Shown here one piece after another: positions 1,337 to 2,600 of a stretch of 64,000 bases of DNA. Source of the stretch: an uncultured Chloroflexia bacterium. Lineage in GTDB: Bacteria; Chloroflexota; Limnocylindria; Limnocylindrales; CSP1-4. Position 1 is the first letter of the stretch. Every line of letters begins with the position of its first letter. The translations under genes were made by a program, and so were the position numbers. The stretch is taken from NCBI GenBank assembly GCA_963748625.1, contig CAVVJT010000010.1, positions 448,001 through 512,000 on the forward strand. Reading direction: 5' to 3'. The notes under the pieces were generated by a model. It was not told the DNA's origin. It searched no databases and saw nothing but the letters and a program-made list of their open reading frames with translations.

Positions 1337-1445
1337 CCCCAACCATGGGGCGTCCTGGAATCTTCCCCGAGGAGATCGACCTCACGACTGTCGCTTCGAG
1401 GGCTGAGGCACGAGGGCGAGGGGCAAGTTCACCCCATGGTTGGGG
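1337..1445. repeat. 109-bp palindrome-ended dispersed element, copy A (subfamily 1)
   Basis: Perfect 14-bp TIR CCCCAACCATGGGG...CCCCATGGTTGGGG; gapless alignment to 2492-2600 and 14614-14722. Confidence 0.8.
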
Positions 1446-1548
1446 GAAGTGCGGGCGGTGCGAGGCCCGGGGGAAGTGCGGGCGGTGCGAGGCCCGGGCC
1501 AGTGCGGGCGGTGCGAGGCCCGGGCCGGGGGGCGGTGCGAGGCCCGGG
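1442..1548. repeat. Degenerate ~24-27-bp tandem repeat (core GGGCGGTGCGAGGCCCGGG x4)
   Basis: Directly visible; begins at the terminal GGGG of element A. Confidence 0.85.
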
Positions 1549-1610
1549 GCCGGGGCGGGGCCCCGGGGGGACCCGGGGGCGGTGCGGTCGTCAGGGGCAG
1601 CCTGGCGCGT

Positions 1611-2423
1611 TCAGAGGGATCGCAGCAGCCTGGCTGCGGCGTCTGCGTATCCCTCGTAGGCGGGCCTGCGCCGGACACTCCCGAGGATCGGTTGACGAAG
1701 CCAGTTGGCGCCGCGCGAGCCCGGGTCGACCATGGCGAGGGTCCATCCGCGCGGTCTCGGCGCCCGGGAATCCCGGATCCACGCGTCGAGGTCGCGGACG
1801 TCACCCGGAAAGGCGTTCCGAACCGTGTCCCGGTTGTCCGCGAGGCGCCGGGCGAGCACTGCGGTGTCGAGCGCCAGCACAACCACGGTCACGGATCGCA
1901 CGTCCCATCCGTTCGCCCGAGCGACGGCCCATGCCTCCCGTGCGTAGAACGCCAGGCTCCTCTGCAGGTCGCCCATGTCCGGGATGTCGGTCTTCGTCTC
2001 GTCCACCAGCAGCGCCTTGTCCGCCGCGCGATACCCGAGGAGGTCGATCCATCCGCGGGGCCGATCCTCCCCGATCGGGACCTCGAGGTCCGTCTCCCAG
2101 CCAGATGCGGTCAGCCGACGTGCTCCGTAGCCGTTGACCACCGCGTGCACGCCGTCCCGCTGGCGGACCCTGTCGTCGAGATGCCGGTCCTGCACAGACA
2201 GGCTTCCTCGGAGGCCAAGCGCGGCGAACACGCGCTCGACCACCGCGAGGTCGATGTGGTCGGCCTTTCCGTGCTCCAGGCGCCAGATCGTCCCGTTCGA
2301 CGTGGCCGCGCGGCGGGCCAGCTCATCCTGGCTGATGCCGACCAGCAGCCGGCCGCGCCTGAGCAGCGCTGCCAGCCATGGGCCGAGCGTGGCCGTCGTG
2401 AGGTCGACCGAGGTGTCCTGCAT
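1611..2423 (-). CDS. XRE-family HTH protein with C-terminal PD-(D/E)XK nuclease-like domain
   Basis: C-terminal part of ORF 1611..3737 from MQDTSV; HTH ISQDELARRAATSNGTIWRLEHG; then E..GWIDLLGYR..LLVDETKT (D...ExK). Confidence 0.7.
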   Translation of the reverse strand: MQDTSVDLTTATLGPWLAALLRRGRLLVGISQDELARRAATSNGTIWRLEHGKADHIDLAVVERVFAALGLRGSLSVQDRHLDDRVRQRDGVHAVVNGYGARRLTASGWETDLEVPIGEDRPRGWIDLLGYRAADKALLVDETKTDIPDMGDLQRSLAFYAREAWAVARANGWDVRSVTVVVLALDTAVLARRLADNRDTVRNAFPGDVRDLDAWIRDSRAPRPRGWTLAMVDPGSRGANWLRQPILGSVRRRPAYEGYADAAARLLRSL

Positions 2424-2491
2424 GGAGCAGGTGTAGCAGCGTCCGCTTATGCGCGGCTCAACCCGTCTCCCGGGCACGAGCCGCCGGGGTG

Positions 2492-2600
2492 CCCCAGCAT
2501 TGGGGCGTTCCGGCCATCTCCGCTCAGGGCTCACCTGCCCAAAGGTCGATCCGGGGGTTGAGCCACGAGGGCGGCTGGCGAATCCGCCCCATGATTGGGG
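2492..2600. repeat. 109-bp palindrome-ended element, copy B (subfamily 1)
   Basis: CCCCAGCATTGGGG...GGTTGAGCCACGAGGGC...CCCCATGATTGGGG; same length and orientation as copy A. Confidence 0.8.

Follow-up and report, generated by a model that had tools for sequence, protein, structure and literature searches.

A helix-turn-helix/PD-(D/E)XK nuclease gene flanked by its own palindromic repeats in Chloroflexota: a candidate REPIN/RAYT-like system

The 64,000-nucleotide stretch of DNA analysed here (the window; positions 448,001 to 512,000 of contig CAVVJT010000010.1, assembly GCA_963748625.1, of an uncultured Chloroflexia bacterium) contains a gene for a 270-residue protein (1611..2423, minus strand) in which an XRE-type helix-turn-helix (HTH) domain is followed by a nuclease domain of the PD-(D/E)XK fold. 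The gene lies between two copies of a 109-bp palindromic element, referred to as family F1, and homologous genes in other genomes are found beside elements of the same build whose ends differ from lineage to lineage. The F1 repeats and the HTH-PD-(D/E)XK gene probably form, with an estimated probability of 0.6, a system resembling that of the repetitive extragenic palindromic (REP) sequences, their doublets (REPINs) and the REP-associated tyrosine transposases (RAYTs), in which the protein would be the dedicated enzyme of the repeat family although it derives from an unrelated enzyme class. An analogy to RAYT/REP had been put forward from inspection of the sequence (the original prediction) and is supported by the present analysis; we infer, as was done there, that the nuclease may drive the system.

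Elements A, B and C and the F1 family

Element A (1337..1445, plus strand) is located 165 bp 3' of the stop codon of the nuclease gene and element B (2492..2600, plus strand) 68 bp 5' of its start codon, scoring 96 and 106 bits, respectively, with R1, a covariance model of F1. A third copy, element C (14614..14722, plus strand), stands alone between convergent genes. As originally described, the three elements of 109 bp each align without any gap; their 54 invariant columns take in GTCG at positions 54-57 and GG.TGAG.CACGAGGGC at positions 65-81. Each end of A, B and C carries the motif CCCCA-N4-TGGGG, and within an element one end is the inverted repeat of the other. A and B are also confirmed to share one orientation since the plus strand scores far above the minus strand (93.8 versus 25.7 bits for A, 92.7 versus 12.6 bits for B). 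With an nhmmer E-value of 1e-26 for A, B and C a chance resemblance is excluded.

A hidden Markov model (HMM) built from A, B and C was iterated over the whole genome of the window (G000; 4.63 Mb, 10 contigs, 71% G+C) and detected 32 F1 copies on seven of the ten contigs, nearly all of them exactly 109 bp long. Element C is therefore a solo copy, as had been predicted, but not the only one, given the 29 further copies outside the window. The covariance model R1 recovers the same places as the HMM and reports 34 places in G000. According to a crude open reading frame (ORF) call based on G+C content at third codon positions, the 32 copies are intergenic, about 13 of them between convergent, about 15 between co-directional and one or two between divergent genes. 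Their length and termini are kept despite the divergence between copies, and their flanks often read TC...GA, which may merely extend the inverted repeat.

Each element has at either end an outer palindrome of 14-18 bp that is specific to its family, and in between an inner core that is common to all families described below. Single-strand folding predicts terminal stems of 14-17 bp (15 bp in A), with folding z-scores of -3.55 for A, -1.15 for B and -1.28 for C, and of -3.8 to -6.8 for three elements of other genomes. In an RNAalifold consensus of 29 copies the terminal stem alone was kept (8 pairs, covariation at one pair), and the elements are therefore treated as DNA palindromes rather than as conserved RNA. 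No Rfam family reached its gathering score anywhere in the window.

Further observations were made on individual F1 copies. Two identical copies (C10:272583-272690 and C4:280165-280272 of G000) are part of a 261-bp block that is 98% identical across the two contigs, and about ten copies have conserved flanks (..ccggcggcg | element | gatgga..), so that one subfamily appears to be part of a slightly larger repeat. Other F1 pairs of G000 enclose unrelated ORFs and no transposase. An inverted pair (L002, C10:370621-371655) surrounds two small ORFs which by eye resemble a ribbon-helix-helix antitoxin and a PIN toxin; its interpretation as a VapBC-type cassette was abandoned, neither ORF having a Pfam match at E <= 0.001. 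A pair in the same orientation (L026, C7:859189-861122) surrounds a beta-propeller gene (Pfam Lactonase, 8.6e-14) whose product looks secreted by eye.

The HTH-PD-(D/E)XK protein

The protein is predicted to consist of an XRE-type HTH domain (residues ~7-77), a linker helix and a PD-(D/E)XK-fold domain (residues ~90-235). The HTH domain, which had been recognised in the original prediction, is matched by HTH_31 with 29 bits against a cut-off of 27, and HTH families were the only ones detected in Pfam. Scans of the protein against NCBIfam and PADLOC likewise gave HTH matches alone and assigned the nuclease domain to no family, the PADLOC match being weak (capH, E 9e-4). None of the three scans detected a transposase family, in line with the predicted lack of a transposase, and no methyltransferase or toxin gene adjoins the gene, both neighbours encoding oxidoreductases. 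In structural comparisons with VIA the N-terminal domain matched ClgR (Z 11.3) and C.AhdI (Z 11.1) over residues 9-75, with a range of 10.6-11.3 including HipB.

The AlphaFold model of the protein (predicted local distance difference test, pLDDT, 92.4) shows a five-helix N-terminal domain followed by helix 91-106, and the model of residues 85-270 alone reached a pLDDT of 91.5 and a predicted template modelling score of 0.88. The core in these models runs from helix 91-106 via strands 110-117, 124-132 and 137-144 to helix 150-170 and strand 177-185, placing D127 on the second and E142-x-K144 on the third strand. Among 48 homologues no or almost no variation is seen at residues H93, E114, D127, E142, K144 and Q154, and D127, E142 and K144 are each kept in at least 90% of them. 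All five Foldseek matches of the domain model at E <= 0.001 are PD-(D/E)XK nucleases, including the endonuclease domain of R2 (8.9e-5) and NucS (4.7e-4); Upx, XisH, Can2, Hjc, McrC and several restriction enzymes follow at lower rank. The VIA matches over ~105-120 residues are to XisH (Z 8.9), Upx (8.8), AF1548 (8.6), Can2 (8.2) and NucS (8.1), values of ~8-9 being middling by the notes of the tool. Since the structural matches agree and the motif is positioned on the right strands, we regard the PD-(D/E)XK fold of the modelled C-terminal domain, initially proposed from the D...ExK motif, as established.

A homodimer was predicted with a score of 0.46, compared to 0.00 for the best of three controls, and with its interface in the HTH domain; at least 57% of the contacts agree between runs and the partner pLDDT is at least 80. 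Of 30 proteins whose solved structure is a pair of one chain, 20 attain the mark applied, compared to one of 23 whose structure is a single chain, although the pass may reflect likeness because XRE/HipB-type dimers have already been solved.

The protein family comprises 391 clusters at 50% identity (E <= 1e-30), whose members are named merely 'XRE-family regulator' or 'hypothetical' in the sources, and the ESM Atlas gave only unnamed Chloroflexota clusters for it. No match to the Y1_Tnp domain of RAYTs and IS200 transposases (PF01797) was found in G000 (98.3% complete), compared to matches in six of 14 control genomes.

Parallel gene-repeat families in G000

A paralogue of the gene (C10:1357585-1358391) lies between an inverted pair of copies of its own repeat family, F2 (score 41.5), of which about 29 copies are distributed over the genome; F1 and F2 are thus accompanied by one intact gene each. 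The 50 copies of the third family, F3, measure 111 bp; a broken paralogue (C7:636164-636941) has one of them at 124 bp, and for an intact paralogue (C7:661405-662172) the distance to an F3 copy is 1.4 kb. In the case of a distant paralogue (C7:467030), a 137-bp element with 17/17 matching terminal inverted repeats (TIRs) is located 92 bp away. A further family, F5, consists of 34 copies of ~145 bp with long termini (CGGATGGAATCGCC...GGCCGATTCGATCCG). Owing to their common inner core F1, F2, F3 and F5 form one superfamily. Given ~147 elements in 4.63 Mb, the chance of finding an element within ~170 bp of a given gene side is ~1%. However, such an element is present at six of the ten sides of the five core paralogues, each gene being accompanied by its own family. 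The HTH-PD-(D/E)XK genes are candidate partners of three families of this genome, F1-F3, with 111 copies.

This frequency argues against an incidental co-location, in which orphan repeats similar to miniature inverted-repeat transposable elements (MITEs) or REPs would have accumulated in permissive intergenic DNA beside an unrelated defence or toxin-type nuclease gene; although repeats also flank unrelated genes (L002, L026 and the F5 pair), this disfavoured explanation is highly improbable considering in addition the enrichment at homologues in other genomes, the matching of termini and protein lineage and the restriction of the weak PADLOC match to the HTH.

Two F3 copies are located in the window. 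The first (16945..17054, minus strand; termini GCCCCACCTGGGG...CCCCAGGTGGGGC) belongs to the superfamily of F1, and the second (36519..36629, plus strand) is a weak R1 match. The first adjoins an array (16836-16944) of two alternating 21-bp units, ~5 units in total, in which the terminal half-site of F3 (GCCCCACCT) occurs. Tandem repeats of short units are also found at A, which is directly abutted by ~4 copies of a 27-bp unit (1442..1549, no strand assigned), and near B (2610-2634; 11-bp unit, 2.3 copies). The short tandem repeats abutting A, B and the F3 copy may be by-products of activity at the element ends.

The sole F5 pair (C7:159726-161150) encloses a membrane protein that is endonuclease/exonuclease/phosphatase-like by eye only, and the use of a repeat pair to predict a gene was given up due to this unrelated protein. 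A single profile for all families was also discarded, as the HMM was either dominated by F1 or drifted across families.

Association of the gene with palindromic elements in other genomes

The original prediction had anticipated that homologues would be recurrently flanked by such elements, and this was borne out among 45 homologue loci retrieved from other Chloroflexota genomes. In several of them the F1 model matches stretches of ~109 bp immediately adjacent to the gene, and L028, L041 and L054 have such a match on either side; the elements have other palindromes as termini, the length and inner core being kept. A comparison of the 600 bp upstream with the 600 bp downstream of each gene gave flank pairs above all of 60 mismatched control pairings in 13 of 44 testable loci (scores 25.5-86.5 versus a control maximum of 17.5), seven of them direct and six inverted; the A/B pair of the window has a score of 23.5 on this scale. 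A strict scan for TIR elements (17-nt ends with at least 15 complementary bases, length 100-139 bp) detected 18 elements in the 39.1 kb that lie no more than 450 bp from the genes, compared to four in the 152.9 kb located beyond 1 kb, corresponding to an ~18-fold higher density near the genes. At least one adjacent element was found by any of the three methods in 23 of the 45 loci. The flanking palindromic elements are 105-125 bp long, and in many loci the upstream one is located 55-150 bp from the start codon.

The termini vary with the protein lineage, for example TGACTCC..GGAGTCA, GAATTCACCGGTGACTCAG and CAAGTCAC.AGCGACTG, and sister proteins have common termini according to a quick tree. 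Furthermore, the helix SQAT(I/V)WR is encoded in four loci, all four of which have TGTGT half-sites. The element subfamilies hence track the protein clades as had been expected. Solo copies of the cognate element elsewhere in the genome amount to at least four in G053 and at least six in G056; in G055 BLAST found no copies beyond the flanking pair. Units of gene and elements are found at conserved loci across related species (window/L028, L049/L050/L060 and L033/L039).

Two loci have a layout similar to bacterial interspersed mosaic elements: L051, with overlapping element arrays at 141-433 and 1541-1758 that have a common terminal palindrome and a period of ~92 bp, and L055, in which the terminal motif occurs three times over (2698-2800).

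Half-site change and turnover in a sister genome

The orthologous locus in the sister genome G057 (L028) is syntenic with the window, and the proteins are 79% identical. As predicted, the gene in G000 is situated between convergent genes; these encode Gfo/Idh/MocA oxidoreductases (25..1230, plus strand, to the left; 2657..3778, minus strand, to the right). The same oxidoreductase genes are present on both sides in G057 and mark the conserved locus; they stand outside the system, whose 1.26-kb unit contains no other ORF than the nuclease gene. The G057 genome has ~22 R1-type places, whereas R1 matches are absent from 36 of 40 other genomes of the genus and limited to one weak match each in the remaining four. 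A DNA search of 18 of those 40 genomes detected no orthologue above the level of paralogues (65-70% nucleotide identity). The orthologue in G057 has one frame shift in its HTH-coding part (L028 ~3080, codon 27), representing either a long-read sequencing error or a broken gene.

Residues 43-44 of the recognition helix are NG in G000 (TSNGTIWRLE) and DA in G057 (TSDATIWRLE). The inner half-site in G000 is TGGGG at 18 of 32 left and 24 of 32 right ends, and TGTGG at two of 32 left and none of 32 right ends. In G057 TGTGG occupies 12 of 20 left and 11 of 20 right ends, both ends in nine copies. The change of the half-site from TGGGG to TGTGG in G057 thus matches the change in the helix and is compensated at both ends. 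Since it concerns both ends of most copies in one genome, copying or homogenisation must have taken place after the split. Over its first 60 bases one solo copy of G057 has 59 in common with the copy that flanks the gene; beyond them it resembles another copy.

Both flanks of 14 solo sites of G057 map together in G000, where ten sites have no element, one has an F1 element and three have an element of another family. The presence/absence polymorphism called for by the original prediction is therefore found between the two genomes. Two of the ten empty sites are gaps of 30 and 66 bp in G000, which are too small for an element. The three sites with another family (C2:43898-44025, C2:146722-146832 and C10:1336986-1337092 of G000 versus L121, L127 and L129) have F2 or F3 in G000 and R1-type elements in G057, which points to common landing spots or to an in-place change of family. 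In the left flank of the L125 site (C10, ~130 bp ending at 228303 in G000) ~110 bases are nearly identical in G000 and G057, the neighbouring DNA having diverged; they may represent a small RNA gene.

In the genus-level relatives examined the two genes flanking the unit are not neighbours, and no R1 element was detected beside the right-hand gene in G004, G016 and G008. The intergenic region of G004 orthologous to that of element C is of similar length and unalignable, and is not a clean empty site. Small shares of the window are contained in 14 public read sets, with no RNA set listed among them; four of these gave short contigs of low depth, none bridging or skipping A, B or the gene, and were uninformative on polymorphism and expression.

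Proposed mechanism

The gene-repeat association is observed directly; binding, cutting and mobilisation by the protein are proposed as follows. XRE repressors and controller proteins read short palindromes. An HTH dimer is predicted to read each terminal palindrome of the element, whether in the form of a duplex or of the stem in a single-strand hairpin or cruciform; reading by a dimer is suggested by the palindromic sites, the predicted dimer and the joint change of helix and half-site. The inverted-repeat relation of the two ends means that this site also arises at the base of a hairpin or cruciform, as its stem. PD-(D/E)XK enzymes hydrolyse DNA, and because of its conserved catalytic motif the nuclease domain probably nicks or cuts at the element boundary. 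Host replication or repair would then complete copying, maintenance or homogenisation, which is the weakest step of the proposal.

Going beyond the association of enzyme and repeat family, the elements could represent a new class of bacterial mobile DNA, that is, REPIN-like elements of 105-145 bp copied via a sequence-specific HTH-PD-(D/E)XK nuclease whose specificity co-evolves with the termini, with several such pairs per genome. We propose this only tentatively, the odds being slightly short of even. HTH-PD-(D/E)XK chemistry is not known to drive any prokaryotic transposable repeat on its own. A search of the full-text literature, whose coverage does not extend to subscription journals, returned no description of an HTH-PD-(D/E)XK gene tied to palindromic repeats in the text available; the papers obtained on the topic dealt with RAYT/REP, accompanied by unrelated CRISPR or Wolbachia papers.

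Several results weigh against the REPIN/RAYT-like interpretation. The F1 copies are old, with a median pairwise identity of 59% and at least 90% identity in only four of 496 pairs, and no consistent target-site duplication was detected in the flanks of the 32 copies. No HTH-nuclease homologue was found beside F5 anywhere in G000 by profile search of six-frame ORFs, three distant full-length paralogues (E 1e-9 to 1e-12) have no flanking element above background, and none of the three detection methods revealed an element in 22 of the 45 homologue loci. Kinship accounts for part of the matching between termini and protein lineage, co-variation between kin not being independent, and the joint change of helix and half-site that separates G000 from G057 counts as one event. 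The intergenic regions of relatives have diverged too far to yield an empty site at base precision. The gene unit looks vertically inherited in place, and the gene itself was not seen moving. From the units at conserved loci it follows that the gene behaves as a resident single-copy gene, like RAYTs and unlike a jumping insertion sequence; the autonomous-plus-solo system of the original prediction is hence retained as a cognate gene with solo copies, but not in the sense of autonomy like that of an insertion sequence. Furthermore, we know of no strand-joining chemistry in PD-(D/E)XK nucleases. Given hydrolysis without known rejoining, the copying step would therefore have to differ from the 'peel and paste' by HUH enzymes of RAYT and IS200/IS605 systems.

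Alternative explanations

The protein could instead be a site-specific DNA-binding regulator or nucleoid organiser that acts on repeats spread by other means, its nuclease domain having another role or being inactive on the repeats. Such a function would agree with the similarity of the HTH domain to repressors and controller proteins of restriction-modification systems (Z 9-11) and its predicted role in dimerisation, and in many loci the upstream element is close enough to the start codon (55-150 bp) to suit autoregulation. The stable, vertically inherited units and the persistence of F5 without such a gene are also in accordance with it. However, the near-invariance of the D/E-x-K residues in the 48 homologues argues for an active nuclease, the repeats are mostly located at the 3' ends of genes, unlike operators, and ongoing copying is needed for both ends to change in concert in G057 and for solo copies to turn over. 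We therefore consider a purely regulatory or structural role unlikely.

Free-standing site-specific nuclease genes that settle beside their recognition sites are known, and the gene could accordingly be a selfish homing-type endonuclease gene for which the palindromes are landing pads instead of passengers. Although cognate specificity and the flanking by target-like sequences would be explained in this way, there is one intact gene per family compared to 30-50 potential landing sites per genome, the units keep their synteny from species to species and are not scattered, and both flanking copies are complete elements and not the halves of a split target. A homing gene seems even less probable than a regulator for these reasons, and a REPIN/RAYT-like partnership of enzyme and repeat remains the favoured interpretation.

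Other features of the window

Diverged duplicated gene blocks with 70-80% identity were noticed at 5825-8549 versus 15183-16697 and 24365-25114. At 20798-20918 and 63469-63565 there is one short tandem array each, the period being 19 bp in the former and 14 bp in the latter.

Comparison with known systems

Bacteria commonly have palindromic repeats of 100-150 bp, such as ERIC, Correia and many families specific to a species. To our knowledge, most of them have no enzyme known to make or maintain them, REP/RAYT being the one well-understood case.

In the Chloroflexota system described here the gene encodes an XRE-HTH/PD-(D/E)XK nuclease in place of the HUH/Y1 transposase of RAYTs, and the elements measure 105-145 bp, with a palindrome at each end, a common core and no GTAG/CGTC tag. 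REP and REPIN repeats accompanied by RAYT (TnpA-REP) genes are described from Proteobacteria (PMC2817692, PMC3333891, PMC5581495, PMC8049555), with REP units of 20-40 bp that bear a conserved GTAG/CGTC tetranucleotide at one end (PMC3733652). Lacking both the HUH enzyme that defines REPIN/RAYT and the REP tag, the system is not a member of that group. It is nevertheless similar in having tens of hairpin-forming intergenic palindromes per genome, no visible target duplication, a single-copy and vertically inherited gene flanked by its own repeats and several gene-repeat families per genome.

ERIC elements (also IRU) of enterobacteria and Correia elements of Neisseria are orphan palindromic elements of ~100-150 bp, which the F1-type elements resemble in size, imperfect palindromy, intergenic location and high divergence between copies. 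We know of no dedicated gene for either of them; the F1-type elements differ by the recurrently attached cognate gene. A further group with similarities is that of the IS200/IS605 insertion sequences (PMC6006769). The ends of these insertion sequences are recognised as DNA hairpins, and they give no target duplication, none being visible for the F1-type elements either. The Y1 HUH transposase both cuts and joins there, in contrast to the hydrolytic nuclease fold found here. Compared to insertion sequences with derived MITEs, no transposase of a known class is located between terminal inverted repeats, and each side of the gene has a complete element with both termini instead of belonging to an autonomous copy from which the repeats would have arisen by internal deletion. 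Type II restriction-modification systems differ by their adjacent methyltransferase gene, which is absent here.

The nuclease domain itself resembles PD-(D/E)XK domains of mobile DNA, namely R2 (Foldseek E 8.9e-5), the fdxN excision factor XisH (Z 8.9) and TnsA of Tn7 (Z 4.8), at a sequence identity of 12-16% to structural matches of this type. Those domains work with a reverse transcriptase, a serine recombinase or a DDE transposase as partner, and no such gene is present in the 1.26-kb unit. The N-terminal domain and its predicted dimerisation are similar to those of ClgR, C.AhdI and HipB, which are XRE-type dimeric repressors or restriction-modification controllers; these are small stand-alone regulators, whereas here the domain is fused to a nuclease and associated with a dispersed repeat family.

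The system provides a second, unrelated enzyme family with the genetic signature of RAYTs, consisting of a single gene between its own repeats, parallel families and a specificity that shifts with the repeat ends. One 270-residue protein and 109 bp of DNA make the spread of repeats without a transposase testable, and the natural pairs of helix and half-site would yield a small, reprogrammable scaffold for palindrome-specific nucleases.

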